From contig NW_026250459.1 in NCBI RefSeq assembly GCF_024521635.1, forward strand, positions 1-60,286: DNA of 60,286 nucleotides. Direction: 5' to 3'. Numbering within the stretch: position 1 is the stretch's first letter; each line of letters opens with the position of its first letter. The notes under the pieces are model-generated. The model had not been told where the DNA came from. It worked only from the letters and a program-made list of their open reading frames with translations, and did not search any database. Made by a program: the position numbers and the translations under genes. The stretch comes from Tricharina praecox (Eukaryota). Shown in pieces: positions 25,601 to 48,707 of the stretch.

Positions 25601-26243
25601 CGTTCGCAACCGCCTCCAAAAGATCAAATACTGGCGCGAGGAAGCATGCGTCCTTTACGTCGCCCTCACCCGCGCCCGCAAAGAACTACTAATCCAGTCT
25701 CCTCTTCGAGAATGGCTCACTGGCGACCGCGGCTGGCAAAAAACATACCTTCAGCTGAAACCCAGCACTTGCCAGTTCATCGAATCTGCCATGGACTCGT
25801 TTCAGCTAGAGTTTGAGCCACTCCGTCAACTGAGCAATATCCTCATAAATACCCACAACCTCATCCCGCCGAACAGCTTCACGGGAGTTATCGATCTCTC
25901 GCCGAACTTGAACTCCCCTGTACGAGGGGGTGCGGTGTGTCGCCCCGGCCCTACGTTCAACGTCGCGCACAGAGAGATCATGTGCCTACGCTGCGCTTCA
26001 TTGATCATGTCGAATCTCCCCGTCCATCGCCACGGAAGTTGTCCGGAAACGGAGCAGTATGTGCGCGTAATTGTTCAGAGGATCTTGAGGCTCGAGCAGA
26101 GCGAAGATGATGAGGAGGTCGTATGGTGTGAGCGATCCCCATGGGTGGAGGTTTGGCTGGCGTGGGGTGGCGTTGAAATGGAGCGCGTTGATTTTTGGGG
26201 TAGAGGGGTGTGGCAGCAGTTGGTGCGGGATGTGGAGGAATAA
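22695..26243 (+). CDS. fbh1: F-box DNA helicase (UvrD/SF1), Fbh1-like; exons 22695-24189, 24238-26243
   Basis: N-terminal F-box LDKLPAEILLQLTDYL; helicase motifs AYAGTGKT, DEAQD, VVGDPYQRIYGFRGA, SFRFG, TAHQAKGLEW, LYVALTRARKEL; intron GTATGT..TTTCAG restores TCKTVHALA. Confidence 0.9.
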
Positions 26244-27037: not shown

Positions 27038-28405
27038 ATGGAGGAAGAAGAACTTACGACACTGCAAATAGACAGATACACCCGCTCCCTCGCCGCATGT
27101 CTCGCCCCCGGCCCACTCAACGGCCAGTTCGTGGGCAAAGTTACGCTACCGACGAAGCTCGAGGCGATACTCCCAGAGCGGGTTAAGCCGCCGCATAGAC
27201 TGTGTCCCTCCATCCCCGTGGAGTCAATCGTTCAACATCTAAAGGATTTGCTGAGCGACGGTCTGGGAGCGGAATTGCATTCGGGCTGCAATGGCGACCT
27301 GGCACATATCATCTTGCCAGTTCACCTACCGGTGGCGAAGTATAACGAGCAGCAGTGGAGAGGAGCCCTAGCTGGGGAGGTGACAGAGGAGGAGTGTAAG
27401 GCTGCCGCTTTGTTATTTCCGGCTATTCCACCCTTCGCTCCTATGTTTCTAGGAGGCACTCGTTTCACGGAATTCACGCCGACACCCATATCGGTGAAAT
27501 CGGCCGACCTGTTTACGGCTACGTCTGAGAATAGACTCGAGGGTAGCTTCGCACTCGGGGAAACAGAGACATATACCCGAGAATCACTGCCACCTAAATC
27601 GCCATCTACAGTATCTCAAGCCTCCTTACCGTCCTTTGAGTCGCTCGCTCTAAAAGCCCCAACCTCACCTCACCTCCCAAAGAATAAACCACTCCCATAC
27701 CGAATCCAACACACGTTCCTCCCATCACTCCAAACCCTCCTCGAGGAAGCTTGTCACAGCTACATCAATGTTCACAATCAGCAGCTTCTCACGAAACACG
27801 GCTGGACAGACCCGCAGGCCGCAGAATTGCATGTGTATGTTCGGGAGATCATTGCTATCTGGCCCGGGGGTCCAAGTGCACTCCCGATGCTCAAAGCACT
27901 CCCGCAGCTGCGACATGAGGCTGTTCACCGGGTTCCAGTCTCATTCGCCAGGATGAATGTGTTTTTTAATTTGGCGCTACTGTGTACGGATGCCCTCGGG
28001 ACCGACAAGGTTGGAAAGAGGATTCTCCGACTACGGAAACGTTTCGATCGTTGGCACGATAAGCAGTCGCTTCAGGAGGATCTGGCTGAAATGATGGAGG
28101 AAAGGATGAGACACCTTGAGCTGGTGCAGAGGAAAGTCGCAAAAGAGATATCGCAGTGGGAGGCTTTCGCATTGCAACGCACGGCTTGCCCGCAGCAACC
28201 GGAGCGTGTCGAGTTGGCTCGGCTGATGGCAGCTGTTGAACCCATATTATTCCCCCAGGCGGATGATTATGGGCGGGACGAGGAGGAGAAGGAAGAGGAA
28301 GAAGAAGGGGAGGAGGATTCCGGCTATGCCCAGCTGCATCATGGTTTCCCGCAGTGGAAATTCAGAGATGATACATATGTCGGGGAATGCGAGACCGATC
28401 GGTAG
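27038..28405 (+). CDS. Hypothetical protein with HEPN-like RxxxxH motif (paralog A, intact)
   Basis: 455-aa intronless ORF; LEEAC...GWTDPQAAELHVY...LRHEAVHR followed by a coiled-coil-like region and acidic tail; two further paralogs in the window. Confidence 0.8.
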   Translation: MEEEELTTLQIDRYTRSLAACLAPGPLNGQFVGKVTLPTKLEAILPERVKPPHRLCPSIPVESIVQHLKDLLSDGLGAELHSGCNGDLAHIILPVHLPVAKYNEQQWRGALAGEVTEEECKAAALLFPAIPPFAPMFLGGTRFTEFTPTPISVKSADLFTATSENRLEGSFALGETETYTRESLPPKSPSTVSQASLPSFESLALKAPTSPHLPKNKPLPYRIQHTFLPSLQTLLEEACHSYINVHNQQLLTKHGWTDPQAAELHVYVREIIAIWPGGPSALPMLKALPQLRHEAVHRVPVSFARMNVFFNLALLCTDALGTDKVGKRILRLRKRFDRWHDKQSLQEDLAEMMEERMRHLELVQRKVAKEISQWEAFALQRTACPQQPERVELARLMAAVEPILFPQADDYGRDEEEKEEEEEGEEDSGYAQLHHGFPQWKFRDDTYVGECETDR

Positions 28406-29044
28406 ATTGGCTGTTGTACGATGTTGATAGTGGCGGGGAGAAAAGAGAAACGTGTAGGTACTTGGTGTTGAGGGCACTCTGACATCTCTCTTCTCAATTA
28501 CATCTGTGATATGGCTAGAGATACGTAATCATCTATTGTATTGTACAATACATCGATGGGCCAGGTGGTTGGGATCCCAGTCCATGTTGACCTGAGCTAT
28601 CGCGAAAGCATTTCAGACGCTGAGCTGGCGTCGTGGTGTACGGCAACCCACTTCCGGTGGAGCTTTGCCGGATCTAGTCTAATTTTAGGATGTGTTTCGA
28701 AACTGAGCCAGACTCCAGGGACCAGCACATGAAGTTACCGGCGGTAAAAACTGAAAAGAGACCCAGGGTACAAGGAATTCGGCAAGCCGCATTTAAGTAA
28801 ACGCGAGGTTTCATATAAACTGGCTATTAGCACAAAGTGCGGCTCATTTGCACTGATAATTCAGGCTTCAGCATATAAATCGGCCTTTCTTCCTCACAGC
28901 GTACGGGTTACAATGTTAGGCAGCCCGGCAAGTAGGCGTTTGGTAGCAATTGGACTCTCGCCTCCACAACCGGCAGCGAAAGGGTGTCACGTGATACTAC
29001 CGAGTGATATCTACATATTTAGCACCTACTACCTAGCCTACTAG

Positions 29045-29497
29045 CACGCGAGCACCTGTTAAGTACTGAAGCAATTGGAAAAAACAGCAGAAAGAACTGT
29101 GGGGAGGTGGAAAAGATCAGCCGCAGAGGGCGGGACCACTGGCGAATAGCGAACCTCTTTGCCGATGAGCGGATGGCTGGAGCAATCCTCAAGTTCCTCC
29201 GAGACACGGAGATCTGTAGAAGGATACCAGAAGGAAGGGAGCAGGGCCCACCGCCGAGCGTGACGTCGGGGGTGGACTACGGGGGCGAGGGGTAGGATTT
29301 GAGGAGGAGAAGCGTAGCGGGCGCCGGAGGTGTGAGATTGGTTCGCTTTCTTTTGTGTTTTTCATTGGCTCGTGTACTCCTCTCTCGCGGGTAGGCGAGA
29401 GACGCCGATTAGTTAGTCTCACGGCACTGGCTCTCTTTGGTGTGGACGTCGTGATATACTTAGGTCTATAGATACGTCAATAAAATGATTCCCCCAC
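29045..29497 (+). mobile_element. 5'-truncated non-LTR retrotransposon (LINE) 3' end with target-site duplication
   Basis: Frameshifted ORF2-like C-terminus REHL..WKKQQKELW..EVEK..WRIANLFADERMAGAILKFLRDTEICRR; 3' UTR ending in AATAAA; flanked by CCTAGCCTACTAG (29032-29044) and CCTAGTCTACTGG (29498-29510). Confidence 0.75.
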
Positions 29498-29764
29498 CCT
29501 AGTCTACTGGTTAGTGGACGAGAGTTGCATGTGACAATAAGCTACGTGAATCGTGGAATCGTGGAGCCTTTTTGAGTGGATGCATTTGTCAATCCACGGC
29601 CAGCCTCGAGGCGCGGCATGCGTTGCCCACAGGTGAGACAAAAACCGAGACGGTGTAACTGTGGTGCGCAGCCCCGCATTCCTTCCGGCCAGCCATCGCA
29701 CGTTCGGTGACGATATAATTTGGGGTAATCCTGACGCCTTCCGCATGAATTCCCCATACATACT

Positions 29765-30629
29765 ATGGAGAACGAAGACCCTTCGAGACAACAACAGGTA
29801 GATAACTACATCCGCTCCCTCGCCGCATGCCTTGCCTCCGGTCCTCCCGACGGTCGGTTCGTGGGTAGTGCGCAGCTGCTCGCGAAGTTCGAGGCGATAC
29901 TCCCTGCGGCCGGGTCGATCTGGCTGTGGGGGGGTAATGGATTCATTTACAAGAGGGCTATCCTTAACCAACTCATCGAGTTTTTCGGGGAGTGGCCTCA
30001 AAAAGGGTTTGCACGACACTTGCGGCAATATATTACCAAGCGCGGCGGATATGATCCTACTGCAGCACCTACCTGTGGTCAAGTACAACGAGCGGCAGTG
30101 GCGACGCGCAGATGGTGACGAGGTGACGGAGAAAGAGGCGACGGAGAAGGAATGCAAGGCTGCGGCGGCATTGGAGGAGTTCTTCCTGCTGGCGCAGTCT
30201 TGCGCGTACGAGTTCGAGAACAGCAATGTGCACGAGAGGATAGGTCGGCTACGGCAACGTTCCCACGACTGGTCGAAAGAGTATTGGCTCCGGTAAGATC
30301 TGGCAGAAATGATGGAGGAAAGGTTGAAACACCTTGAACTGGTGGAGAGGGAAATCGCAAAAGAGAGATCGCAATGGAGTGCTTTCTCATTAAAGCACGC
30401 GGCTTGTCCAGAGCAACCGGACAGCAATGAGTTGGCTGGTTTGAGGGTAGTTGTTGAATCTGCATTATACCCTAGTGACAGAGGGAGGGAGGAGGACCCA
30501 CAGGAGGAGGAGGAGGAGAAGGAGGGGAGGGGAGGGGTTGTGATTATATCCGATTACATCTTGGTTTCCCACGCTGGGAAATCTAGGAGGATCCCAGGGT
30601 TAATTAGTATCATAGGTTGGATGTCTTAA
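29765..30629 (+). pseudogene. HEPN-like paralog B, pseudogene with frameshift, internal deletion and stop codon
   Basis: VDNYIRSLAACLASGPPDGRFVG and HLPVVKYNERQWR match paralog A; KAAAA joins directly to LEEFFLLA, so the Pro linker and RxxxxH region are missing; TAA at 30294-30296 precedes DLAEMMEERLKHLELV. Confidence 0.85.
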
Positions 30630-31984
30630 TATGTTGGTAGCCTTCAGGGAAGCAAACGAGAACTACATGTATCATACGAGTACTTTGTTGAGCACTACGG
30701 CACCTATCTTCTGTTGTGTTTTTGATGAGATTAGCTTGGAATATCAAATACATCTTGAGTTTATCTCGGACCAAATCATCCCTCGTGCTTTCGATGGGCT
30801 TGCCTAATCCGCTTCGTTGGCCAAACGATTGAACCCGTCGGAATATACGAAGCTCATGTCACATGACGAGGTCTGAATTTCGATACAGACAGGTTTTGAG
30901 CAGGATAGCTTCGAGCGCACTGAATACAGGCACCCTGGTCCAGGTCGAGGTATGCGATAGATTCTTTCCGCCGCAGTCGCGCGAGCTGAAGTATCGAGTC
31001 GCCCGATTTTGATAATTCGATTTGGACGTTTAGAATCATCTCCATCCCCGGGGATTCGCTGAGAGGTGTTACATGAACCCACCAGTACAGATGTTCATCC
31101 TCCGCCCACCCCAGAACTGGCAAGGTTGTCCGGGGAGATAGCGAAGCAACGAGTTATGCATCATGTCCCCGACGCCGCAGCGCCGAAGCGGCCATCACGG
31201 TTCTCCCCGGCGGTATTGACACATGGTCAACTCCAATAGAGTCCACCCTGTCTATTTATATCAATTCCGCATCACTACGATTTCACGTCTCACCAAGTAG
31301 AGGTGTAGATATTCTAAACGGGATCCAGCACTGCGCCTGTTGGCATAGAATTGTTCAACTCCTCCTCCCACTCCTGGTAACAACGAATGTGATGGGCTGC
31401 TACAAGTCGCCATCAGGATAGAGAAAGGTGCGTGAAACAATTGTGGAGAACTTTCGTGCGAATCGAGCTTCCTGATCCGTGGCCGGTCACTCGGATGCGG
31501 CAAGCATGCACACACGGTTCAATCTCCATCCCCGCGTTCATTCCATGTGAATGAAGCGGCAAAAGTATAACTCGGCGTATTCCTCATGTCCGATATCTTC
31601 AGATTATCGTAGCTTTCTTTTCATCCGGAATGAGAGAGGTCCTAGTTCGTCCCTGAAGTCGCTTTTGAAAGGGCTCTTTTCCAATGCCTCTCCAGGCTTG
31701 ACGAGAAAAGAGCGCACACAGGGGAGAGAGATGAGATGGGAGGTTGACCGTCTATTCGATAGATGATGATTGAGAAAGAAGAATAAGAAGAGGAAGACCC
31801 CGCCATACCCGCCAACGTTAATTCCCACCGCTACTAACTACATTCGTTTCCTCCCGCCGACAGCTCTCCCATCACTTTCTCCTCTCGCTAACAGCTCCTC
31901 CTTCACTTCCGCCTCTCGCCGACAGCTCCTCCATGCCCAACGGCCCCGCCATCCGCGACGGCCCCTCCATCTCCGACAGCTCCT

Positions 31985-32376
31985 CCAACTCTCTGTCGCA
32001 ACGCCGGATCTCATGTTGTTCGTGCATAACATTCTCGATTGGCGAACGAGCTGCGTGAATATCGGGGGCCTCTGCTACTTCGGGAAATAACAGTACATCG
32101 TTTTGGTGAGCGGGCTCTCCCAAGGCCCGGGATTCGGTACTTCTTGTGGAAGATTTTGGAGGGCGTCCGGTATGAGGCTTATTTTTCAGAGCGTCGAGTC
32201 TTGCATCGAAGCTTTCGCCTTAAGCTCGTTACTCTGCTCTGTGCAAGATCTGTCGAGCAGTATTGCGTTTCACACCAGTCTTCTTCGCGATATCGTTCCA
32301 AGAAAAGTCGGCTTCATGGAGCCCAAGTATTGCTGCTCTTTTCGATAGGAATGTTTCGTCCACGTTTTTCTGACAT
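31985..32376 (-). mobile_element. Degenerate Tc1/mariner-like transposase N-terminal (HTH) fragment
   Basis: Conceptual translation with one frameshift: MSEKRGRNIPIE/KRAAILGLHEADFSWNDIAKKTGVKRNTARQILHRAE*RA*...KNKPHTGRPPK, then FPEVAEAPDIHAARSPIENVMHE; GRP linker after HTH. Confidence 0.6.
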
Positions 32377-33156
32377 TGTGGGTTGCTGATGAACGAGTTT
32401 TCTAAGTGTCGTCACATATATATAGGGCTCCCAATGACGTCCTGACATAAGGCTCCGTCCCTCGTGACGCCAAGATTCTCTCTCTCTCTCTTAGCATTCG
32501 CGATGACGAAGCGGGGTGCCGTGACATCCCCATGACATTCCGGCCGTGTAAGTACTCTAGACCGAGCGAGCCTAATGCTTTCTAGCCTGTCCGAACCCAA
32601 GAATTGGATGGGCTGGGTCGTGAAGAGCGCCAGATAATTACTTACATACTCATATTCATGTTGGCAGAGGTAGGTGAAAAACGAAACCGATGTTGAGAAA
32701 GTTCCATCATTCGACCTACAGATAACTAATCCGCTATGAACCCAGAAATATCTTGAAGATCATGAAGCCTCTCACTCGTCTCGACCGCACGATTTCTGGG
32801 TAATTCAAAAATTACGAGTAAATATGTGTATAAACTAAGAAGCCCCGGTGCTCCGCCAACGAAATATCAGGGCCCTAAATCCTTTGTACACTCTCCCACC
32901 TCCAACCTGGGCTTGGCCCTTGGGGTTTCTTTCCCTTCGAGATAGTCGGACACCACCCATCGCCTCCACTAATCTCCCCACTGCCCTGCTGCTGAGTAAT
33001 CTTTCAGCTTGCCAATAGTAACAGAGAGGAAGGGGCCAAGTATCATTCTTTTCCCCGCTGCCGCTGCTGCTCTATCCTGTCTAGAATTTGTTTCCTATCA
33101 TAATTACTACTAGTTTCCCCAAATTTTTGGAATCAAGTCAAATACGAGGGAGGTAC

Positions 33157-34401
33157 TCACGAAAAAGAGGGACCAAAAATCAGATAGCCTCCTTCCAACA
33201 GCACGGGTAGCCACAAGAAAACCGCCACGATCTGCCCAAAAGTCCACACATCCTCGGCATAGGCCTCTCTGCCCGCCATCTGTTTGATCCCAACTTTCAT
33301 TGTTGTTATGATCGCTAACCCGACAGCTCCCCAAACCAGGCTGATCACGATATGAAGCTTCTTGGTTGCATTGTTCCATCTCCACTGAGCGGGCTTTATC
33401 ACCTCAGCGGCTGTTTCCGACGGCCCGTTCTCGACGGGCGGGGTGTCGGGCGGATTGGATTTCTTTACTCTCCCGAACCAGAAGCGTAACCCCACCACCA
33501 AGGAAGCCAATGTGTACGAGTAGGGAAACACCCCCACGACGTAGAAGAAGTGCCTGCTTTTGAACAGGGGCGACTCGCACGTGTGGTCCGGGTATCTCTC
33601 CCCGCTGCTGGCCGCGAGTATTCCCGCCGCAGAAGCCACTGTACACGCGAGAATGGTGCAGATCACCGCCAGTGCGTGCCGGAAGTTCTCACGCGTCTCG
33701 CCACCTATAGCCGCTCCGGGCGGTGCGTGCTTCCACATGCTGCAGGCGATGGGGAGCGTTGGGATCGCAGCGATGATGGGAATTAGCGCTATGAAGGAGA
33801 CCTCGTAGAGGGTTTTGGCCGTCACGAGGAAAACCATCGATGCAACCGACACCGGGAGGGAGAAGGCGATGCACGTGTCAAAGAATATGGTGCGCACCGT
33901 CCGATACTTTGATATGTTTGACGTTTCGATCATATGCAAGATTGCGAAAGTCGTAAATAGAATTGTCTCCAGAAAATACGCAACAATCATCTACGAATAA
34001 ATTCATCACCGTCAGTAAGCAGAAACGCCAGTGTAGTTCCGCGGAAACACGAAACATACCCCGATGCCGCCGGTATCCGATTGTCCGGCGAATTTGGCAT
34101 ACGCAGTATTGCATATGTTTCTCCAGCACGTCCTCTTCGCCCGCTCCATGGTCGCCCCATTCATGGCCGGCGTGAAATCCCCCGCAGGTTGGAAGAGGTA
34201 GTTGTCGATGTAATCCTGGAGCTCCGCGGTGGTAACATTATCGCGGTACTGGTCGGGGAGGGCGAGACGTATGAACTCCGGTTGTGGCTTGCCGACGTCG
34301 GAGTCAGCCGCGGTGTCCGGAGATCCGAATAGAAGACCGACGCCAGTACAATTAGCTGTAAAGTTCAGACTTGATACCGGGACGCCTGCGAGGACTGACA
34401 T
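33157..34401 (-). CDS. Uncharacterised ~7-TM membrane protein with Cys-containing N-terminal domain; exons 34401-34060, 33990-33157 (possible extra exon ending 33043)
   Basis: Phase-0 intron GTATGT..CTGAC..TAG joins SDTGGIG to MIVAYFLE; seven hydrophobic segments; last one carries WTFGQI. Confidence 0.8.
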
Positions 34402-35941
34402 TTTTCCTCTTGTCCTTGGTTAGAGGTTGCAAAGTAGGGAATCCACCTACCTACTTCGCGGGGCGGATTCCTACGGATTGTATAATAACCACAGTAGTAG
34501 CCGGCCCGCTTCCAATCCTCAGCAGCTGATGCTCCATAGGCATACTGGCCAATAAAAAACCAAAAAAAATAGTCAATTCGATCGGTTGGCTGAGATACGG
34601 CCATGTGTTGGTACGACGCAACGCCTGCATGAATGATTGCATGAATTGAACGAAAATCTAGATTCCACGATTAGAGTTGTGCAATGTGCATACTCCATAT
34701 ACTCGATCGATGGCAGTATCACCGCTCTGCGTCTCGCGTGTTGTAGATTACTACATAGTTATTATGGGCTGCATACCCATCTGTAATAGTGGGAACTTGA
34801 AGAGTATGTACCAATGCCGGAATACTCTGAGTCCGAAACCCTTCTTTCCTCTTCACGATGTTTTGTCAAGTTCTAACAATGTCTCAGTTGCTGGTCTCAG
34901 TTGCTGGCGTGGCTGTATGCATGCGCATGTCGGTCAGCCCGACTGTCAGGTTTTGTAGGTGCTCGTGCTGTGGTCAGTTTGTAGGCTGATATGTACCCCA
35001 AGCCGACACCCTTCCCCTCCAGCTGCAGAGTAGAGGGGTGTACCAATCCTCACAAGATCATCATTTCTAGCTCTTGAGAACGCCTGCTTCAACTGCTCCT
35101 CTTCCAATGGCGAAGTTTCATATGCGTCCTGCCAGTGATTGGTAAGGGAGCCCACAGAAGCTTTAGGATAGATAAACGGCGGTACTGTTGGTTGTCCTGC
35201 TTCTCGTTGGACAAGAGAACCCCTCTAGTTATACTCAGTACATGCTCACTCAATGCAGGGCACGATATGTAGTACTCTTAGGCGAGCCTTCGGCTCCCGA
35301 GCGCGCACGTTCAGCCGTCAGGGACTAGGTACATATTGTCGGCAAACGTGTACGTCATTATAGCCTTCCGGACGTCTAGCAATTCTGACAGAATCCGCTG
35401 AGGCAAATCCGCCGCCGTGCTCCGAAGCTTGTTCCAATCCCCATGGCCGGCTGCCGTTGGTTAGGAGAGGATTTTCCAATATTTGTGCCTTGAGGCCTGG
35501 GGTTTCAGAATTCCCGGTTAACACGTGGTAGGTATCGTTTGTAATCGCCGCTGCCTGCCTGGAACGAGTGGGGGTAGAGACTGCAGCCGCAGTGAGATGT
35601 CCATATATATTTCAATTCGTGACGCTTACGACGGTTCAGTGCTTATCGCGCGCTGCAGAGTTCACCAACTGTAGGTGAATATCCATCGACCATAGATAGG
35701 TTTGGGGGTGAAGGCATAAGTCGCTTGAATACTAAGGTTCAATATTCTAGAAAGGTATCATACATATCCGGGAAAGAAAATTGAAATCTATCGGGGTATC
35801 ATTGTCGTCGTGATCCAAAGAAAATAAAAGACAAAGCAAGGCCGCCTACAAACACAGCGCTAAATGCCAAACGCAAGCCTCCAATCCGTCCCCCTCGCGA
35901 ATACGTAAAATAGATACCACATCCACCAACCAATCGTCCCT

Positions 35942-37770
35942 TCACCCGGACAGTTTGATACAGTATCCAAAATCCCTCAGCATACGTCCGACCTCGACGA
36001 AGCCCCCAATCGCAAATGCAAACCCACCTACCACCACAAAGCCCATGACGATAGTCTCTAACCACGCCCACCAGGCTAGCTTCCTCCGGGCCTTAGTCGT
36101 CTGTCCCACCAGATTCAACGCGCCGATGACCTGGCCTACGACCAACCACCCCGCCATGAACAGCTTCTGTCTATTGTTGCTGCGGCCCGGCCGGAACTTC
36201 GATATCCCCCCGACGACAGCATATGGCAAGACCAGCGAAAACACCATTATCACTGCCACAGCCCACTGCCGGAACTTCTTGCTGCGTCTGTGCGATGAGC
36301 GTGAGAACACATAGCTCTGGCCCACCGGTTGCACGAGGATTTTTGCACGCGGGTCTTCCTGTGTATTGTAGGATCCATCGAGCGGCGGAATGAAGACGCT
36401 CCACGCCTTACGTCCGGGCACTGAGCGGCCATCGTCGTCAACCTCAATCGCCTTCCATCCGCCGCGCTTGCCGCGCAAGAATCGTAGGTCGACAAATTCC
36501 ACGCCCGCCGCCGTCAGCTCGATGTCATTCTCCATATCTTTGCTCGCGGGTACTAGTTCTGCGACTTCACCGACGAATTCGCCGCCTTCGCGGTGCTCGG
36601 CTTCGAGCATTACGTCGGAGCGCACAAGGAAGAGACAGTCGTATGAGGCTTCCACGAGGTTTGCAATCGTGTTAAGAATGGACATTACGGTGTAGGGGAC
36701 CACAGTGAAGCCGAAGGCGGCATAGCCATAGCGGGTGACTTGGTCGCCATAGGCAGAGTAGAGCGCATAGAGCGAGGAAATGATCTGGACTATGCCTGTG
36801 AAGGCTTTAGTTGCGTTGTAGGAGTTGGATATTACGATGTCGGTTTTGACAGCGCGGGAGACGGCGAGTGGCATCAGTTCAGTGCCGGGCGGTAACTTTG
36901 CTAGTGTGTATTCTGGGGGGAGTGTAAAATGACCTGTAGACACCACCACCACCATTTCCGTTAGTAACTGTTTCCTAGGCTGTATTTACAGACGACAGGA
37001 AGCACGTCCTTACCCTGGATCTTGTACTTCTCAGGATCGATTTTTGTGACACCCGGAGGTCCAATGATCAGTGTAGCCGATGAAGTTGAAAAACACTCGG
37101 CCGCGAACGCATCCTCGTCTATTTCCTCCTCCTCCTCCTCCCCCGTCAACATCGCACTATGATCCGAATCCGCATCCGCGTTAGGCCGCTGGTACACATG
37201 ACTCCCCGGATCTCCGAGTAACTGCGGCCGCCCATCACTGCCTTCCTCATGTCTGCTCTGACGCTTTTCCCCCCGCCGGTGCTTCTTCTCCTTTCTGCGT
37301 CGCCGCTTAGCGCGCCGCTCCAACCTCCGCCGACCCCGCTCGTCACCCTCCACCACAACACACCCCTGTATAATCTCGCCGTGCGCGGGGCGCCACCCCT
37401 CCTCGCGCACGATTACACACAGCGCGTCGGCAAGTAACGCGCGATCCACATCGTTATGACCCAAAAACCGGCTCCCGCGTGCGATCGTGGCCGCCGCACC
37501 ACTGATCCCGATGAACGGGACGAAGAGCGAGGCGAAAACGTAGAGGTAGTCGCGGGTGCCGCGGTAGCCCGACGTCTTTTTGTACGTGACGATGCGCGCG
37601 ATGTAGTTCGTGAGGAAGAAGCTAAGGATTTGGTTCCATGGCGCTGGCCGCATGCATGCCGTGTTGGTCGCCTCGTCGAACTCGGCAATTACTTTGCGCA
37701 GCTGTAGGAGCGGTGTGGAGAGCGCTGGAGGCAGCAGCGATACTAGGAGGAGTAGGACCGTTCGTAACAT
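35942..37770 (-). CDS. Uncharacterised membrane protein with signal peptide and ~7 TM segments; exons 37770-37014, 36933-35942 (582 aa)
   Basis: MLRTVLLLLVSLLPPALS signal peptide; PAPWNQILSFFLTNY and GDQVTRYGYAAFGFTVVPY motifs; intron GTAAGG..CTAAC..CAG in frame. Confidence 0.85.
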
Positions 37771-38440
37771 CGTGAATAGGTTTGCGCCGCGGGGACATGA
37801 GGTGTGTTGGTAAGGAAACGACCTTGTCATAGAAGGGGAGACCCTGACCCTCGTGGTTGTTTTGACACTTGACCTGCGGGGATCTGGTCGTCGGAGCAAC
37901 ACACAGATGGTCTAGCCACATATGGAAGGCAACGCTTAAGCGCCGGTCATCTGCCGAGCCATTGTCTGTGAACGACAAACTGCTGGTCAGGATCACCTTC
38001 AGAGAAATACTTCCAATCTTAGATTACCACTAGAAACAATTTGTTAAATTATGCCAAGGAATCTTGGGGTAAGATAGTAATAGACTTTACCTTGAGATCG
38101 GGCTCAGAAATCCAGCAATCAGAAAGATTTTTTGATTCTGTTCACTATTACCTAGGTACCGAGTACGCACTTATACCGGTATCGACGATGTGAGTCTCAA
38201 TGCAGGAAGCGGATATGGCTTGTAAGCGATCGAATTGGAAGCCGAGGTTCGTACTGACATGCACAGCCAGGGAGCTATCTAACACCAGCATTATTAGCTA
38301 CCTAGATAGTCAAGTGGAAATATTTCTATGTATATCCGCACATCCATGCCAATGTTGTCTCAATTCGTTTGTTTGTTCGTTTCTTCATTGATCACGTGCG
38401 GCCCATCTAGAATATCGTAGTATACACACTCCCTTTCCAG

Positions 38441-38536
38441 TCCAGTGGTGTTTCTTTATAATCCCATGGTATCTCTTTCTAATCCCGTGGTATTTTTTCA
38501 GTCCCATGGTGTCTCTTTTTAGTCTCGTGACGTCTC
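38441..38536. repeat. ~20-bp tandem repeat, ~5 units (TCCCATGGTRTCTCTTT-like)
   Basis: tccagtggtgtttcttt / tcccatggtatctcttt / tcccgtggtatttttt / tcccatggtgtctcttt / tctcgtgacgtctc. Confidence 0.75.
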
Positions 38537-38539
38537 GAT

Positions 38540-38711
38540 TGTAGCGGATCATAATATCACTCCTGCGGCGAACGAGTGAAATCGTGAGGTTGAAAATTTG
38601 TAAGTTACCATCTTCCTCTTATACGACTGCGAGTTGATTGATCAAACAACGATAAGTATATGGGATAGAATATGAAAGTTCTACGTTAACCTCAATATTC
38701 GTATCGCTACA
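38540..38711. mobile_element. Candidate solo LTR (172 bp)
   Basis: Begins TGTAGCG and ends CGCTACA (7-bp TG...CA terminal inverted repeat); internal TATAAGAG on the - strand; flanks TCGAT/ACGTT only partly match. Confidence 0.45.
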
Positions 38712-39267
38712 ACGTTGACTGGACTCTAGTTTCTGGTCGGTATGTACAGTTTCAGCTAACTAAATATGAACGTTCGCTAGTCCGCCCCTTGTTAATAGCT
38801 CGAGCCCGAGAAAATATATGATAGAGCGTTGGGTAACAGCCCACTTCGGTCCTATCGCCTAAATTGGTGCTGGGGCGGTATCAAAAGATACCCGCTCTTT
38901 GCAGGTAGGCGGAGATTTCGAGCCGGCAGATGCACTGTAGGTGAGGAATTTCATATTTGGTATCACTCGACGCGCCGAACGTCCTACATACGATGAGGAG
39001 AAACCGATGTTTGCGGAAACGAAACGGAAAATATGTTTGCCGGTGGCACGTCCTAAAAAGTGCCAGCAACTTTTGGTAAGACCAATCAAGAACTCCAGCC
39101 AAATCATAAATGAAGTCCTTCCGGTTGATCGAGATTGACCATCAAGACATACACAAAAGAAGTACAAGGTTGCTTATCTACATACAGAAACCTCACTATT
39201 TCCAAGTAGATCGGAGTGACCGACAATAGTGTTATTTGAAAAGTTGCACGAGCTTCCCATCATCAAT

Positions 39268-42200
39268 TTATCTACCAATCATTGCTTCCAACGCGGTCTG
39301 TCCCATGTTGTCCTTCACATCTCTGTCGGCACCACGTTCGATGAGAAGGCTGAAGACAGCCCGGTGGCCATTTACTGCGGCCAAATGCAGTGATGTACAG
39401 CCGCTAACATCCCTTGCGTCCTTTTCGACACCATTTTCGAGTAGAAGGCGGACGATACCCTGGTGGCCATTTGTCGCTGCCCAGTGGAGTGCTGTACGGC
39501 CGTTGTCATCCTTCGCCTCCTTGTCGATACCGATTTCGAGTAGAAGCCGGACGATAGTCTCGTGGCCATTCGCTGCCGCCCAATGTAGTGCTGTACGGCG
39601 GGAACTATCTCTTGCGTCCTTGTCGACACCACTTCCGAGCAAAAGCCGAGCGATACCGTCGTCACCCTTCGCTGCAGCCCAACGCAGCGCCGTTCGTCCT
39701 GTTTTATCCTTTGCATCCTTGTTCGCACCATGTCCAATTAGAACCCGAGCGACAGCCTCATGGCCATTTCTCACCGCAACATGTAACGCTGTCTGATCAC
39801 CACCATCCCTCACGTCCTTATCGACACCATTTTCGAGTAGAAGACGGGCAAAAGCATCGTGGCCATTTACTGCTGCCCAATACAGTGCTGTCCGGCCGGC
39901 GGTATCCGTTGCGTTCTTGTGGACACCTTCTTCGAGTAGAAGACTACCGGTAGTCTCGTGGCCATTTGCTGATGCCCATTGGAGTGCTGTACGGCCACCG
40001 CCATCCTTTGCTTCTTTTTCGACACCATTTTTGAACAGAAACCGAACGACAGTCTCGTGACCATTCGCTGCCGCCCAATGAAGTGCTGTCCGGCCGTTGC
40101 CATCCTTCGCCTCCTTGTCGATACCGATTTTGAGTAGAAGCCGGACAATAGTCTCATGGCCATTCGATGCCGCCCAATGAAGTGCTGTCCGGCGGTTACC
40201 ATCCTTCGCCTCCTTGTCGACACCGATGTCGAGTAGAAACCGAACGACAGCCTCGCGGCCCTCCTCCGCTGCCCGGTGCAGGGCTATCCGACCATCGCCG
40301 TCTTGCGCCTCCTTATTGGCACCATTGTCGATTAGAACCCGAGCGATAACCTCATGGCCATATCCAGCAGCCAGATGTAGCGCTGTTGCTCCCGCACTGT
40401 TCTTCGCTTCACTGTCGACACCACACCCGAGTAGACTTTTCATGGTCGTTGAATCGCCGCCTCGTATGCCAGCTAAGTGCACTGCACAGTTTCCATCCCT
40501 ATCTCCGAGTTTAATGTCGGCGCTTTCCAACAATCTCTCAACAGCTTCATTTCGGCCCGCAATGACTGCCAGATGTAAAGGTGTTCTTCCGTAGTCGTCT
40601 TCTGCGTTGATGGATGCGTCCCGTCGTAGAAGTTGATTCAAAATCTCCACATGTCCATGGTAGGCTACCCAATGCAGCGGTGTCTGTCGCAAGCGGTCCT
40701 GCATCGCTTCTTTTGCTCCGGCATTAAACAACCTTCTGATGATGTCGGCATTACCGGACCGTGCTGCGCAATGTAACGGTCCTGACCCATCTCTACCTCG
40801 TACCTCCATATCCGCCCTCCACCCCAGAAGTTGAGACACTGCGTGTTCATTTTGGTTGTCGGCGGCCCAGTGCAATGGGGTAAAATCGGTGATGTCGATC
40901 GGATCCTTATCGGGGAAATTACTCAGAAATGATTCCGCGTGAGGACCATCGTGGTAAACACTAGTACCCGCAGAATAATAATGAAGGATTGAACAATCGA
41001 AAATGTCTTTCGTGCCCGTTTCCAGTCTTTTGTCGTACGAAAAACCGTCCACCACTCGGTCGACTATGTCTCGGATTTTCCTGGAGGATTCAACAAACCA
41101 TCGTACGGGACGGCGTGGGTCGGTCGGCTGTGGTTCGAACGTACGCCGCATATCCAGTAACACATCTTGGAGGCTTGGGCGCTTCTGAAGCTCGTAAACC
41201 TCGAGCAGATCGGTGACAATGCTTCTATCGAGGGATTTCAATTCTGCAACGATCTTCCTTTCAAGTATCTCCAAAATTTCAACAGCACTACCTTGTCGCA
41301 ATTGCTGTTTTGACAAACATAAGTCCGTCATGACAGAACGAAGGAATTCCATCAGAATCGCAGCCCCCTTATGGAATAGCGGATGCTCGGGCCCGAATGG
41401 TTTGCAGACCTCCCAAAGACTGAAATACAATTCTTCCACCTTGCTCCATTGCCCCGAAGCCTCAGGATTCCTTGTTTCGTGTCGCACCAGATCGATAATC
41501 TGCAGCGGTTCCGGAAGTTTGTCGTTGACACTTAGCGGCGGAATCAGCAGCATGTAGGCCTCTTCGGTGGTTGCCAGTCCTGCGATTTGAACCTCTTGAG
41601 CCATCTTTTGTAGAAGAGAATTCTTCAAACGAAACGATTTCCACGAAATGTCGCCTGCGCCGATGGCGGATACTGCTCTTGCAGTGGTCAGTCCCTGGAT
41701 AGGGCCTTTCAGATGTCGTGCGACTGCCCATATGAACGACGAAAAGAACTCTTGGGCATACACAAGCTCGATCGGACCGTTCGACGTCGAAGCAAGCTGG
41801 TAAGCCTTTCCACGGGGATCTTGTTGAAGATTACTGAGATCGCCTGCAAGCCGATATCGCAAGTTGTAAAAGGAATTCTCAGTTGAGCCAGGGGCAGGGT
41901 CTGATTCTAACTGGGCTCCCAACGCATAATCCTTAGGTATCTTGATTAAAGGGGATTTGAGAACACCAGTCGTACCAGTGTTTCTGTCGCTTGTGGTATC
42001 GTTAACGTCTTCTGTCGCAGCAGTCTCGTTGGTATCAAGAACGATGACACTACTAGCTGCGCTGCCGCCCCACCATATCAAGTCTCGATGGGTGGGGAAG
42101 TCGTCAGGACCCAAAAAGCGTAAACTCTTCCTCGTCCCCGCGCGGCCGTGCCGTAACCAGTCCTTCTCCGTGTCCCGATTCCCACGGCTCCGTATCCAAG

Positions 42201-44193
42201 AGTTTTGGGCCTCTGTGAATAGGCGTAGAGATAGTGCAGCCTCAATTTCGGAGGTGCTGACCGTCCATCGGTTGGTGTCATCGTCCCATTTTAGGCTGAA
42301 GAAGACCTTTTGTGTGATGCTTTCTGACGTTCCGGGTACCACCACTTGGGCATTGATCGGGAATCGGAAGCCTTGGGGCAGTTTCTGTAGGTAAAGTGTG
42401 TTCATTACCGCCTCGATTGCTGTGGCAACTGAAATCGCTGCTTCGGAAGCGCGGCCCGTCCACTTGCTGAGCTGCCCTAATCGCTCTCGGATTGAATGTG
42501 CTCTTGATGCTAGGTCGTGACCCGGCTCCGTAGCCTTGGCCTCCTCCTCCGCACTCTCCTTCTCTACCCCCTCCTCCCCTTCCTTCTTATTATCGTTATT
42601 CTTATCCCAATCGCCACCTGTGACGGTCCAAGTTGGAGCCGAACACAATACGCCCACTCCCGAGTGAAAATTATCCCGCGGGATCGACCAAAGCGATTCC
42701 CCTCTTGCCGCAAGTTCAAGAGCGAGCCAATCCATCTCATAGCCATCGAGAACCCATTGTGCATCGGGGCGGCCAGCTAAATCTCGACGCAACCAGATTC
42801 TCACACACGTCATTATCGCAGTCCCAACGAACTGTGCCATGGTCGCAGACCAGTGCATCAATCGCAAGCCTGAGAAACTTAGTGTAAATCCGACGATGGT
42901 AGTGACCGCTCCGATGATGGCCAGTTTCTGGTGTGGTCCGCTGAGTTCCACCATCGAGTCGCCGGACTGCTGTGGAGTCCTTCCGTGACTGCCCATATTC
43001 TCGTCTCGTCGTGACGTCAGGATACAATCGCGAAGGCCCGGTGCAAAGATTGCGTATGAGTCGAAGGATTGGTCGTTAACAATTTTGCGTTGCTGCAGCC
43101 ACAGAATATGGACCTGTGGTTCCGCCGGAGCCGCCCCTGCCGTCGAAGTACTCTCCTCCGCCTTTGCTTGCCAGGCCTCCTCTTTGGTGCTTTGTTCGAT
43201 GATCCAGGCGCACAGGAACATACCGACTGTTGTTGTGATGATTCCAGCAGCTGCCACTGGATATGCCGAGCCCACAACTGGCGAGCCGTCTTTGCGAAAC
43301 CTAGGGATCCATGGAGGATGGTAGATTGCCATAGCGCAAAAGACGAGCACGCCGAGCTGGAGAGATGCTGCAAACGCCACGAACCATAGCAAGGATTGCT
43401 TTCGCGAATACGGCGGAGGCGCAAGGTTGAGGGATATGTTAGGAGCGGGAGCTCCGTCAGTTCCGTCGAAGCCTTCCAATGGTTGCGAATGCCTCTGGGT
43501 TTCGACATCGCTGGGACGCACGGCATTGCTTGCTGTATGAACAGAAAAATTGAGACGGAAACTTTTGCACTATGCTTAAGGGTTCCCCACCTTTCAACTT
43601 TAACGCTGCATGTTTGGTCTCCCTTTCACTCTCATCGCGCAAGGTGTACAGCCCACATTCCTTCTTGTCCTTCCTCTCCTTGACGTACACCAGTTCCAGA
43701 ATCTGTGGGGATCCCATGACCCGCACGATCGCTTGGCCGTCCCACATCTCGCAGACCTCCAGGCTCGTCGATGACAGGAGTTCCAGTTCGGCCATAGCAC
43801 GGCTTTCCCTTGCTCTACCAACAAGGGCTTTCCAGGAATTCGGTGCTGCCACTCTGATTGCGCTCACTACCGTGGTGATGATGCCAAGCGGAAAGATGGC
43901 GAAGATCACGCAATCGTACCAGGTGATGGTCTGGCTTAGAAACTGCTTGGTAACCTGAGGAATCATAAAATCTACGATTAGTCAAAAGTTGCCCCATTGG
44001 AAAAGATATGAGTCCCAGTAGTTAGTACCTGCTCTCCGAACAATGCTAAAATCGGTGCAAGGTCGGTCAACAGATTGTTCGTAAAGCTGTCCCCGGAATC
44101 ATCGGCCCTCGCCAAGCAGGCATTGATAAAAACGATTACAAGAAAAGCGACTAGGATATTGCCCCGTACTTTCGGTGAATTTATCGATGACAT
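39268..44193 (-). CDS. Signal-peptide, multi-TM protein with C-terminal ankyrin array (~16 repeats); exons 44193-44029, 43954-43591, 43532-39268 (1597 aa)
   Basis: SP followed by DSFTNNLLTDLAPILALFGEQ|VTKQFLS; ~5 TM segments; repeated GRTALHWAAxNGHxxxVRLLLxxG 33-aa units; introns keep the frame. Confidence 0.9.
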
Positions 44194-44877
44194 TCCAGTT
44201 GGTGCTCGGGTTGTCGCTCGGAGGGGCGGGATTCTCGTGTAGTTTTATCCGGGCGGGCGACGCGACACTCGTTTGTGCTGTTGGGAAACACAAACTAACG
44301 GATACTATATGTCTGCTGCAGCAGAAGCAATTGTGCTGTTCTCTCTAGAGTGTGGGACTCTGCATCAGCCAGTGTTTTCGCCGTGCTCTTTGGTGGTGGT
44401 TGGTGTATGCGACATTCCGAAATATGTTATTCGCTCCGCAGGATGGGACAGATTCAGCAGTGAAGTTGCAGGTGTATAGACGGCAACGATATCGCGGGGT
44501 ATTCGCTTGATCCAGGGCTGTGCCAGCAATTCTGCAGAGGTTACAGCCGTACATCGCCGTGCATATGAGACATTCCGACGTTGTGCAAGCCGTATCAAGA
44601 CACGGCCATTGGTTGCGATTGGCACCATAGAAACGACCACACTTGGCACATGAGTGGTTTGGAAATCGGTGGTAATGGGTATTATATAATCAGCCCGGAT
44701 GCTTGAGACCGCCGACAACCAGTAACCAATTGTTCGCGTGCGACTTCACTTTCCCTGCTTTAGTGGCGCGGAGATAGAGCTGATATGGAAAGAGAGTTGA
44801 TGGCCCTTTGTTATTCATCTGATAACCCTACAGATCCACAGCTTTAATGTTCCTTGAATATATGCATTCAAGCCCCG

Positions 44878-46419
44878 CTACCCGTATCCGCGATTTTCCC
44901 AGGGTTGGAACTTGGCAATCGTCTTGTAATACTCCCACCAGTTAAGACCATCCTCCCCCTCCTCCCCTCCTCCCTCCTCCTCCCCCTTCCTCTCCCATGA
45001 ATACAGCACCCTTGTCCTTTGTGGAGTAGTATATTATCGACCCCCGACTGGAGTGAAGCCTGCAGCTTCTCCTGTGCTGGTTGCCCGTCCCAGTGCTCGA
45101 ATATCGGTGCGACAGATTTTCACCACAATTCCTCTTTTTCGATCTCGCCCTTTACGAACTCCAGGTGTTTCAACCTCCTCTCCCTCATATTTATCACCGC
45201 TTCTCGGCCTTGCCTTGGCCAAATATAATTCCGGCTGAAAAGAGAGCTCAGCCGCAATATCTTCGAATTAGCATCATTATCCCCGAGGATAGTGGCACCG
45301 ATCTCCGCCAGGGAAAAGAACCGCCCCATCTCGGTGGAGGATATCCGAACTCGATGGACAGCAGAATTTCGCAGCTGAGGAAGGGCTTTGAGCACGTCGA
45401 GGCCATCCGAAGTTCCGCACCAGGTCGGAATGATCTTTCGAATATACACGTGGAGCTCTGCAGCTTGTGGAATCGTCCAACCCTTTTGCTCGAGGAGGTA
45501 CGTCATGTAGGTACCGATGAAGCCATGGCACGCGTCCTCGAGGAGGGGCCTGGAGCGGTGGGAGGAACATGTGTTGAACGGCGTGGGGAGTAAATCTTCG
45601 TCCGGCGCATGGTGAAGCGGGAAGGTTGCCGATTCTAGTGCGGACGAGGAAGATGGTGAGAAGGCGTAAGATCGTGTGGACCGCGACGCCGGAGGTAGCG
45701 ATTTAGGTAATGCTGATTCTAGGGAATGAGGCTCATAGGGATTTGAGGGGAATAATGGGTGGGTATGAAATGGTATGATCAGCGACGCTGACGGCGCGAA
45801 CACAGGCGGTGCTGATGCGGGGAGAGGCTCATAGAGCCTTTCTTGGTGGTTGTGGGCTCGGTTCAAGGAGGCGGCCGTCCCGCCAGCAGTGACGACGACA
45901 GCCGCGGCAGCTACTGCTCCCTGTGCGTCCCAGGGAGGCCTCTGCGGAAGAGGGTGCACTGTTCGCTCTGGCTTCGGCGCAAGCGCTGGCTTTGGGGCCG
46001 GGATACGAGCGACAACATGAGAGGCCGGTGTGATTTCCGGACACCGCGCAGCAGCCTCATGACACTCCTTCTCCGACACCACTCTGCCAACTGCTTCTCG
46101 CCATTGCTGCTGGTTATATCTCGCGACGAATAGGTGCTCGGGCAAGATCATAACCGTCACATTTGGTTGAAAGTTCAGGCAAGAAAGATGCAAATCCTTT
46201 TTGAGGCCGGTTTCCAGCAACTCTTCGAGCCGATCAAGGACAGTCTGGACGTGCACGACTTCGCCACTGCCGCGCATCCAAATATATCTGTATCTCCTCG
46301 AACTTCGCTGGCAGCCGTGCGCTGCCCACGAACTGGCCGTTTGGTGGACCCGGCGCGAGACATGCGGCGAGGGAGCGGATGTAGTTGTCAAGTTGTGTTG
46401 CAAGGGTTTCTTTCTCCAT
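44878..46419 (-). pseudogene. HEPN-like paralog C, disabled (frameshift near 46290, premature TGA at 45120-45122)
   Basis: MEKETLATQLDNYIRSLAACLAPGPPNGQFVG shifts frame into ...ILPEHLFVARYNQQQWR...LLEDACH...GWTIPQAAELHVY...LRNSAVHR; similarity to paralog A continues past EELW*. Confidence 0.8.
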
Positions 46420-48707
46420 CGCACGAGAACTACCGAGGAAGTAAAGAAAGAAAGAAGGTTCGGATTGCTACAACTTATATTTCCACGACGCGTAGAGGCT
46501 GAGGGGCGGAGCACCACATACAACCGGTTACACTGCATGGTTTTCTTCTCCACTCGCATCCCGGGAAAACGCATGAACGTCACACGCCTCAACGACCGGC
46601 CACGGATCAGGCAACACCAAGATTCACTCGTAGTGAATTTCCGTCGTTGCATAAAACTTCGCCCGCCTCTTGAATAGGTATTGAAAGCGTGTATTAGCTA
46701 TATGGCATTGGGCTTATCTCGACTCACATGTATCAGCCTTGCCTATCGTAGGATCACTTTGGTCGGACACTCCTACCGAACTCCATGCGCGCGTCTATCA
46801 TGAAAGCAATCGGCCGATACTGCCCTAAAATATGTTGCAACAAAAATTCCAATTGTCTCAACCTTTCGTACTATTGAAACCATATTAGATCACTCGGCTG
46901 AGTATTCCCATCGTGATATTTCCACCAGAGTATCTCGGCCGGTCTGCTCTCCCATTATATAGAGCCCAAACACTCTCGAGATTACTCTCGGATAGGGGTC
47001 CGGGACGATTTGCCTTTCGCCCAATATTACACGAGCATCCGCATCGGGGCATGGGTCGTTATGAGTAAACTTTATTGCCCTCAGTGCTCACGGGTTTGGT
47101 ACCTTATATAGTGGTGTAAACCACTGTAAACTTTAAAGTGTTAAATAAGTGGGCTTCCGCTGCAGGGGAGGCAAGCGAGGGTGTGGGTGTTTGGGGATTA
47201 GTGTATCGAAAGGTCTTCCAAGGTCTTCCGACAATTGGTCGAGGTATAGCATAGCAGCAAGGCGAATAACAAATTCATCAATTCTGTGCATAGAGGGATG
47301 ACAGATGAGATATTGCTTCGCCGGGCCCGGAAGATGGTGGAGATCCCGCATAACGGTAACTAACGTGGTCGCAAGCGATGAAACGGCACGTTGACTGTGT
47401 CCTCCAACGCTGCTCCGAGCACTCACCCACGTCCAGTCCCAGCCCGGGCTATCCTCTGTAGAACTTTCAAGCCCGGGTGAGACAGCGTTTACCGTATTGT
47501 CAAGGACTGATGTACTTTCAGTTCCCGCCAGTCTCTAGCAATAAGAAAATCCGGGGTTTTCGTGATGGAAAGAGCATTTTTCTAGTGTTCCCGCCACAGG
47601 CACTGTAAGTTATCTCCGTACAACCATTTATTGATTACCAGTGCCAAAGTTGACACTCGGAGCGGCCACCAACCCTTGTCCAATCTAGGTGTGTCTCGCC
47701 TACGTACCCTGCATTATCAGTCCCCGCGGGCCGCCAGGCCACCTAGCGGGCTGTGGGCCCTAACCCAGGATTGGAGGACGAGCCCGGCCTGCCCTAACGA
47801 ACTAGTGTTGAGAGATCTCCGCGCGAGACTGACCCACACTGCCGGGCCCTAACTACAGGACTGTTGTCTAAACGGACGATCCGAAACCAGAACTCTACTC
47901 TCACCTCCTGTAAACTTCAAGCGGGGAGTCCTCGCCCAAATTCCTTCCGATTTCGCTTCACAGCCATCACTCCGTCTAGGGCCCTGCCACCTCCCTTTTC
48001 TTCCTAATGCTACTGCTGCTGCAGGGCAGCTTTGATTGCCCGCTTTTGGTAGTGATTGTTGTAGATGATCGAGGGGAACGGTGCCGAATGTGTGGAGTGG
48101 TTGTGAGGACCGGTGAAGAATGAGCTTTTTTGAGTGAGGAATCGATGCGGGTATGTACACCTACTAATTGTGAAGCTACACTACGTCGTTTTCATCTAGA
48201 ATCACATGGTTCCCCCGCAATCCTATCTTTGCAGTCTTTGTACTCCGAGATTGGACGGACTATATTACAGTTATTACTGCCGTCGTGGATATTGATAGGA
48301 CGAGAGTAGGGATACACGGTCCGTCCATACGAGACCACCGTCCGGACCGGACTGCCTACCTATGCAGAACACTGGATCTCTCTGTATCAAGTAACTTCTC
48401 GAAAGCTGCCATGCTAAACACTCTTGCCACCGGTACCGTCGCAGCCGCTGTCAACCCCATAACTATGGCCATGGTTCGCAGGTTCCCCGAAGCGAACATG
48501 CATCATCATGCACCCCACAGAGCCGAAATGTTGTGGTCCCGGCGCGGTTTGACATGTCGCGAACGGAAGGTTATTCTCACTTTCCGCCTTTAACCATCGA
48601 TTCCCCAACTCTCTTGCTTTCTTTTTCACGTTCTCTCGACGAGGGGAAATAAGAAGAAGCTGTTTCGCCTTTCGATTTTTCTTTCCCGGCCAGCAGCACA
48701 AGAAACG

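Follow-up and report, generated by a model that had tools for sequence, protein, structure and literature searches.

Three related loci lie on contig NW_026250459.1 of the fungus Tricharina praecox (assembly GCF_024521635.1), within the stretch of 60,286 nucleotides (positions 1 to 60,286, forward strand) that was analysed and is referred to below as the window. One of them, copy A, is an intact gene whose product is a candidate ribonuclease of the HEPN superfamily; the other two, copies B and C, are decayed paralogs. Their features are given here with coordinates in the window, or with positions in the protein where these define the element.

27038-28405 (+): copy A, one intact open reading frame (ORF) of 455 amino acids (aa), protein P0001
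27038-27415 (+): N-terminal domain of copy A (aa 1-126), predicted to be all-helical, with no fold or family match
aa ~127-215 (+): Pro/Ser linker of copy A, from the ORF and the models
27683-28012 (+): HEPN-like core of copy A (aa 216-325) with E236, E263, R292, H293, H297 and R298, from conservation in 141 sequences and a model with a predicted local distance difference test score (pLDDT) of 92.6
27911-27928 (+): R-H-E-A-V-H motif of copy A (R292 to H297), corresponding to the final five residues of helix 75-92 in the model and the residue that begins the loop
aa ~323-382 (+): long helix of copy A, from the ORF and the models
up to aa 455 (+): acidic tail and FPQWK motif of copy A, from the ORF
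29765-30604 (+): copy B, transcribed pseudogene, from tblastn, the depth of RNA contigs over bins 29464-30795 and one contig of a metatranscriptome (30415-30609)
46419 to ~44890 (-): copy C, transcribed pseudogene, from tblastn and the unspliced RNA contigs 44805-46479 and 44999-46424, with 0 differences

One intact gene and two decayed paralogs

A tblastn comparison of the copy A protein with the window gives matches at three loci only, namely copy A itself (27038-28402, 100% identity) and the paralogs starting at 29765 (+) and 46419 (-), exactly those that a preliminary description, made from the DNA letters, had singled out. Copy A is covered by unspliced contigs from two runs (27046-28558 and 27043-28440) with 0 differing letters and no joint. 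Both runs are labelled only 'RNA?'. The window has the look of nuclear DNA from a filamentous ascomycete, with short introns (49-80 nt, GT..AG), and the contigs contain five canonical spliced joints in the introns of neighbouring genes (33093>33160, 33990>34060, 36931>37012, 43532>43591 and 43952>44027), while three intergenic bins are uncovered. Because of these joints and the uncovered bins the runs are read as RNA, and on that reading copy A is transcribed and intronless, and copies B and C are transcribed pseudogenes. The description of the family as intronless thus stands for copies A and C, which RNA contigs cross without joints where neighbouring genes are spliced. Short contigs from two soil metatranscriptomes also match copies A and B with 100% identity. 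Contig depth is unfit for ranking expression, and the levels of the copies are thus not compared. Since the contigs of these two runs cover copies A and C with 0 differing letters, the lesions are real and do not come from errors of assembly.

The N-terminus of the copy A protein, MEEEELTT, is acidic and has no signal-like segment, and a hydrophobic run of at least 8 residues occurs within the first 40 residues in 2 of 143 family proteins that start with Met. With no signal peptide, the product is therefore intracellular, and the proposal of an effector is not supported if it means a secreted one. Comparison of copy A with its relative P0002 gives ratios of nonsynonymous to synonymous substitution rates (dN/dS) of 0.43 for the N-terminal domain, 0.37 for the HEPN-like domain, 0.20 for the long helix, 0.25 for the tail and 0.86 for the linker. 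The domains of copy A are under purifying selection, and the Pro/Ser linker evolves almost neutrally. As copy A is transcribed, both in two culture-type RNA data sets and in soil metatranscriptomes, any activity of its product must be tolerated or latent. The preliminary description held a single intact copy to be what a toxic or rapidly turning-over gene would leave; the decay of two copies is no demonstration of toxicity.

Copy B retains parts of both ends of the gene. In tblastn, aa 1-46 of copy A correspond to 29765-29905, aa 75-126 to 29994-30173, aa 294-413 to 30135-30488 (E 2e-25) and aa 430-449 to 30545-30604, with alternating frames. There is a frame change between 29905 and 29994 and a second one ahead of the acidic tail, and an in-frame TAA at 30294-30296 is flanked on both sides by residues that align to copy A. 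No equivalent of aa 127-293 is present, so that the linker, most of the HEPN-like core and the RxxxxH motif are gone. The C-terminal 105 residues are 57% identical to P0002, 52% to copy A and 34% to P0153, a further relative, and the variable stretch in the middle of the N-terminal domain, compared over 30 residues, is nearest to P0153 (14/30 identical, against 6/21 to copy A). Copy B thus looks chimeric, with an N-terminal part of the P0153/C type and a C-terminal part of the A/P0002 type. Such a chimera could have arisen by a deletion spanning two tandem genes such as those described below for a related fungus, with the N-terminal part of the argument resting on the 30 residues compared.

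The start of copy C translates as MEKETLATQLDNYIRSLAACLAPGPPNGQFVG..., and the frame is lost near 46290. The first 44 residues of copy A match 46419-46291 (frame -2, 68% identity) and aa 61-132 match 46250-46026, with a frame change and a small deletion between 46291 and 46250; aa 182-370 match 45704-45132 (frame -3, 43% identity, E 1e-34). Over 45590-45550 there is a double frameshift, and QHMFLPPLQ at 45576-45550 lies outside the frame of the long ORF. Because this QH..L..Q stretch, invariant in the family, is encoded in the other frame, the double frameshift is read as a compensated one. A TGA at 45122-45120 ends the ORF where copy A continues for 81 residues, and what is left of the helix, of the acidic tract and of an FQPWE motif can be read downstream in two further frames, to ~44890. 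The RNSAVH motif is still readable at 45371-45354 (-), and this ORF of copy C is in the database as protein P0004.

Two alternative accounts of the lesions were rejected. Introns do not explain the frame changes in copies B and C, since RNA contigs cross copy C unspliced and the stop in copy B is in frame between residues aligned to copy A. Repeat-induced point mutation (RIP) is not the cause of decay, as the RIP indices and GC content of all three copies resemble those found elsewhere in the window.

In a related fungus, a metagenome contig of 5.4 kb (L001) has two intact paralogs in tandem on one strand, P0153 (487-2097) and P0002 (3533-4996). It was the sole contig obtained from a scan with P0002, a scan with copy A gave none, and it is too short to show neighbouring genes. 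The linker of P0153, the upstream paralog, contains a long basic repeat of the ARKP type, rich in Ala, Pro and Lys, that is absent from copy A. The tree sets copy A and P0002 against P0153, P0003 and copy C, with support of 1.0 for the whole group. From this pairing the two paralog types are older than the split of the two fungi; the relative has kept both types, and T. praecox has lost the C type. The locus is undergoing family turnover; copy A alone survives as an open frame of 455 aa, and copies B and C, with their frame changes and stops, are transcribed wrecks. The birth-and-death reading in the preliminary description, with one intact copy, fits both these decayed copies and the intact pair of the related fungus.

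The helical domain and its family

When 1.84 billion cluster representatives (50% identity) were searched exhaustively with HMMER, 188 proteins were found at E<=0.001. Almost all of the 150 listed cover only aa ~218-380 of copy A. Word-indexed searches found few relatives because they scored only the 8000 candidates with the largest number of words in common: two full-length relatives, P0002 (55% identity) and P0003 (40%), and, when the family profile was used, 4 proteins. The taxa seen, as given by the labels of ESM Atlas clusters and by the name of one protein, are Ascomycota only, and the family of at least 188 clusters is probably restricted to them. The sole public name met for the family belongs to P0077, which has RHTAVHR at residue 224 and is entered as 'hypothetical protein [Apiospora marii]' at NCBI and as 'Ubiquinol-cytochrome-c reductase cyt...' in UniRef. 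The cytochrome c1 family had no Pfam match in 129 homologs (E<=0.01) and was not among the 25 of 165 families listed for the 105 members of a family alignment (A1) scanned at E<=5; for this reason the UniRef label is, in our judgement, a propagated misannotation.

Conservation of the motif Arg and His across the family had been set beforehand as a test of the HEPN assignment. In an alignment of the core that includes copy A and P0004 and holds 141 of 152 proteins (11 that cover less than aa 229-309 of copy A were dropped), R292 is found in 138/141 and H297 in 132/141. The residue after the Arg is polar in 139/141 (H in 126, N in 10, D in 3). The other conserved positions are:

E236: 141/141
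R298: 141/141
Q232: 139/141
L235: 139/141
W256: 137/141
E263: 136/141
Q224: 134/141
C239: 131/141
H225: 125/141

The signature of the family can be extended to QH..L..Q..LE..C / W..PE..EL / RHxAVHR, and a regular-expression count found the motif in 141 of 150 proteins from outside the window. The motif coordinates given in the preliminary description, 27911-27928 and 45371-45354, are exact.

The AlphaFold2 model of aa 205-401, built with 104 homologs, has a mean pLDDT of 92.6 and a predicted template-modelling score of 0.78. It consists of helices 17-42, 44-50, 60-69, 75-92, 99-116, 119-178 and 184-196 (model numbering), the sixth being a single helix of 60 residues that follows the core. Helix 75-92 closes with residues R88-V92 (R292-V296 of the protein), and the loop that leads to helix 99-116 starts with H93-R94. 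A second structural look at 455 candidates retained by Foldseek placed 4pqz first (7.5), followed by 6m6u (6.8), 7bxo (6.7), 1wty (6.5), which we take to be a HEPN protein, and 4nqf (6.5); ranks 10, 11, 12 and 22 are also HEPN, and 7ae6, 6tug, 6kcr and 5yjc lie below rank 5. The top entry, 4pqz, represents the Swt1 HEPN domain (Peng et al., 2014, cited in PMC12637454). In another structural comparison the rows titled HEPN, Csm6 or Cas13 were 4rgp (7.3), 3o10 (6.9), 6vrc (6.8), 4nqf (6.3), 2hsb (6.2) and 6tug (5.7). In the ESM Atlas, a weaker source, the nearest feature clusters, and the only ones with a name, are HEPN_Swt1 (0.78) and Las1 (0.76), and the nearest structures are a Swt1-like HEPN (template-modelling score, TM, 0.58) and a DZIP3-like HEPN (TM 0.64).

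Anantharaman et al. (2013; PMC3710099) define HEPN domains as four-helix up-down bundles that often carry an insertion separating helices 2 and 3. They describe the position that follows the Arg as 'mostly N, D or H' and give an assisting role to a conserved acid further upstream, which typically lies in an Ex3[KR] context in helix 2, near the motif. The predicted fold is a four-helix bundle of this kind, the His lies 4 residues after the Arg, the motif sits at the boundary of helix end and loop, and the residue following the Arg is polar.

Several results weigh against the assignment. Pfam gave 0 matches to copies A and C at E<=1, and no Pfam HEPN model scored above its cut-off in the 129 homologs, the remainder being coiled-coil or low-complexity noise. 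Among the 25 of 165 families listed for the 105 alignment members, a weak HEPN match occurred in 1/105 only. NCBIfam and PADLOC returned coiled-coil noise, a profile search of PDB sequences nothing that links the domain to HEPN. Foldseek found no match to the PDB at E<=0.001, its best HEPN row being Csm6 at rank 2 with E 1.2. Neither E236 nor E263 has K or R at +4, so both stand outside the Ex3[KR] context. The Swt1-like HEPN model PF18731 is neither among the 25 of 165 families listed nor found in the 129 homologs at E<=0.01, and Foldseek against viral BFVD models gave no match at E<=0.001. In favour of the assignment, P0073 has a sub-threshold Pfam match to HEPN_RiboL-PSP (PF18735; E 0.0024; 18.3 bits, where the cut-off is 28.4) over its RHTAVHR motif. 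As no curated HEPN sequence model reaches threshold, membership is based on fold and motif. Of the preliminary assignment, the HEPN-like predicted fold, the R[H/N/D]xxxH motif and the invariant upstream Glu stand, and recognition by a curated profile is the part that is missing. We accept the assignment and the competence of the site because the fold resemblance is accompanied by a motif that is present and correctly placed: the helical domain is quite likely a HEPN domain, and the domain of copy A is probably competent as a ribonuclease.

The remaining parts of the protein are as first described, with a Pro/Ser linker, a helical domain, a coiled-coil-like helix of 60 residues and an acidic tail. 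The N-terminal domain (~125 aa), reported as unrecognised, has a confident predicted fold (pLDDT 87) and no match to a known fold or family. It is carried by P0002, P0003, P0153, P0006, P0007, P0010-P0013, P0024 and P0009. The last of these (593 aa) has three in tandem ahead of the HEPN-like core, with IRSLAA or IKSLAA at residues 13, 131 and 237. In a FastTree phylogeny of 142 HEPN-like cores, proteins with this domain fall into one clade of 15 tips (support 0.87), in 11 of which the domain is detected; the four remaining tips are short, at 109-273 aa. The N-terminal domain thus marks a small clade within the larger family. The tails of copy A, P0002, P0003 and P0153, and the remnant in copy C, share an acidic run and a conserved F-P/Q-x-W-E/K motif.

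A candidate latent ribonuclease

HEPN ribonucleases that bear the motif include the KEN domains of RNase L and Ire1, PrrC and RloC, Cas13, Csm6 and HepT. Because characterised HEPN domains that keep the motif behave so, we propose that copy A encodes a metal-independent endoribonuclease, probably latent, in a fast-evolving and unannotated family of filamentous ascomycetes, and put the probability of this reading at roughly 0.6. The helical N-terminal domain, restricted to one lineage, could be a sensor or interaction module, followed by a disordered Pro/Ser linker and the predicted HEPN fold with its complete R-[H/N/D]-x3-H site. The active site would probably need two HEPN domains side by side, and the helix of ~60 residues that follows the core probably forms a coiled coil and is a plausible dimeriser. 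A homodimer prediction of aa 205-401, run without the family alignment, scored 0.01 (mark 0.32) and is uninformative either way. Latency could be maintained by the N-terminal domain or the acidic tail, the switch being dimerisation or a partner. The steady transcription of copy A argues against an unregulated toxin.

The role of such an enzyme is more speculative. That the family is large and divergent and turns over locally may point to conflict or defence, and lineage-specific HEPN expansions in other eukaryotes have been interpreted as defence (Anantharaman et al., PMC3710099). One strict version holds that the locus is a selfish or conflict system, a killer, an executioner of abortive defence or a meiotic-drive toxin, whose transcribed and decayed paralogs are relics of an arms race, decoys or regulators. 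Such a system would account for the three local copies and their decay, the family's 188 or more clusters (50% identity), the fairly high dN/dS of 0.4, the defence reading of HEPN expansions elsewhere and the continued transcription of copies B and C. We nevertheless consider it unlikely, if worth serious attention: there is no sign of toxicity or of a partner or antidote gene, no known death or NLR domain occurs in the 129 scanned homologs, and the transcription of pseudogenes is common and cannot be ranked here by contig depth. In the same sets, and in copies A and C, Pfam found no NACHT or NB-ARC with repeats, HET, HeLo or similar death domain. A broader proposal is that latent HEPN endoribonucleases across the Ascomycota are cell-autonomous, RNA-targeting effectors of immunity or conflict, with copy A as the founding example; their targets could be mycoviruses, or they could serve in non-self recognition. 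The sensor would then be the orphan N-terminal domain, triplicated in one member, the coiled coil the activating dimeriser, the acidic tail an autoinhibitor that mimics RNA, and the decayed paralogs decoys or regulators. Taken as a whole, this proposal is offered tentatively and is quite unlikely.

The latent ribonuclease has also to be weighed against a HEPN fold that does not cut RNA and serves as a scaffold or binds RNA or nucleotides, like the C-terminal HEPN of Swt1 or that of sacsin, with the Arg and His holding a ligand. The best structural match is indeed the HEPN domain of Swt1, which is possibly inactive according to Anantharaman et al. (PMC3710099), and copy A is transcribed without apparent harm. 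Swt1 is, however, thought to be inactive through loss of the motif, whereas here the Arg, its polar neighbour and the His are kept in 132-139 of 141 sequences, and in the same source such conservation is the mark of active ribonucleases. A domain without cutting activity is therefore distinctly improbable. To the same degree improbable is an unrelated fungal helical bundle, a common helical arrangement with a chance motif in which RHxAVHR serves metal, haem or phosphate binding or another hydrolysis, since the spacing of the motif, its N/D/H neighbour, and its position at the boundary of helix 3 and the loop fit the published definition, an invariant acid lies upstream, HEPN proteins fill structural ranks 1-5, and HEPN families are the sole named neighbours in the ESM Atlas.

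As a candidate latent ribonuclease, the copy A protein can be compared with three known groups. Its likeness to the C-terminal HEPN of Swt1 (4pqz) and to the Swt1-like family PF18731 is structural only. The Swt1-like family is catalytically active and has lineage-specific expansions in Daphnia, dictyostelids and Naegleria, whereas the fungal family is seen in Ascomycota only; Swt1 has a PIN domain, and the fungal proteins lack one and have an architecture of their own (orphan N-terminal domain, Pro/Ser linker, HEPN, long helix and acidic tail). With HepT of the MntA-HepT systems (MNT-HEPN; PDB 6m6u, 7bxo, 7ae6 and 5yep) they share a small four-helix HEPN core with Rx4H, at structural ranks 2, 3 and 10. 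These systems are bacterial and consist of two genes, with a nucleotidyltransferase as antitoxin; here a neighbour of this kind is not seen, and three modules are added in the fungal protein. The KEN domains of RNase L and Ire1 and the animal DZIP3-like HEPN proteins, the latter near neighbours in the ESM Atlas (TM 0.64), are eukaryotic, intracellular and latent ribonucleases activated by dimerisation, and lineage-specific expansions of KEN and DZIP3-like HEPN proteins are tied to immunity. Across the 129 homologs of the fungal family, kinase, ankyrin, RING, NACHT and Death modules are absent from the polypeptide, and activation of the fungal proteins by dimerisation is assumed.

No filamentous-fungal HEPN family of this kind was found described in full-text literature, which leaves the supplementary tables of the 2013 census as a place where one might be listed. 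That census names fungi only for Swt1 and Las1 (PMC3710099), and 'HEPN' has 0 occurrences in the search listing for a paper on fungal NLR effector domains (PMC9815663). We regard the family as a new one among HEPN proteins that has an architecture of its own; both the superfamily and lineage-specific expansion as a principle were known before. HEPN ribonucleases drive bacterial toxin-antitoxin systems, CRISPR defence and animal antiviral responses such as that of RNase L, and fungal innate immunity is now framed around NLRs, HET and HeLo domains and gasdermin-like proteins. With its 188 or more clusters, the full HEPN active-site signature, no Pfam model and one ill-fitting label, the present family would fill an annotation gap, and provides a candidate for RNA-level defence or conflict in fungi that is testable through a small intronless gene.

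Neighbouring genes and repeats

Directly upstream of copy A lies a gene for a superfamily-1 helicase of the UvrD/AAA_30 type (22656-26243, +). This is one gene, because the apparent in-frame stop at 24228-24230 lies in a 49-nt GTATGT...CAG intron (24190-24238). Between copies B and C, 39143-44100 (-) encodes a protein of at least 1354 aa with an unassigned, partly membrane-like N-terminal half and ~15 ankyrin repeats, which are self-similar at multiples of 99 nt over 39289-40435; the gene is transcribed and has introns at 43532-43591 and 43952-44027. Two further genes, at 32828-34442 (-) and 35767-37816 (-), are transcribed and spliced and encode multi-pass membrane proteins of no Pfam family; the second joins the ORFs 35942-36955 and 36961-37830 across an intron at 36931-37012.

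In both RNA runs the segment 31462-32127 reaches a very high contig depth and shows numerous loose ends and one skipped repeat; it is probably a low-complexity or repeated transcript segment common to other loci. Comparison of the window with itself shows direct tandem-like repeats of 72-82% identity at 353-903, 10736-11384, 15727-15957 and 17240-17496. An ORF at 8298-10286 (+) has a PAS domain of the ERT1/acuK type (PF24990, E 4e-42) and probably encodes a transcription factor of the gluconeogenesis type, unrelated to the HEPN genes. Other genes in the window encode MFS transporters, a DPP-IV-type peptidase and a mannitol dehydrogenase.

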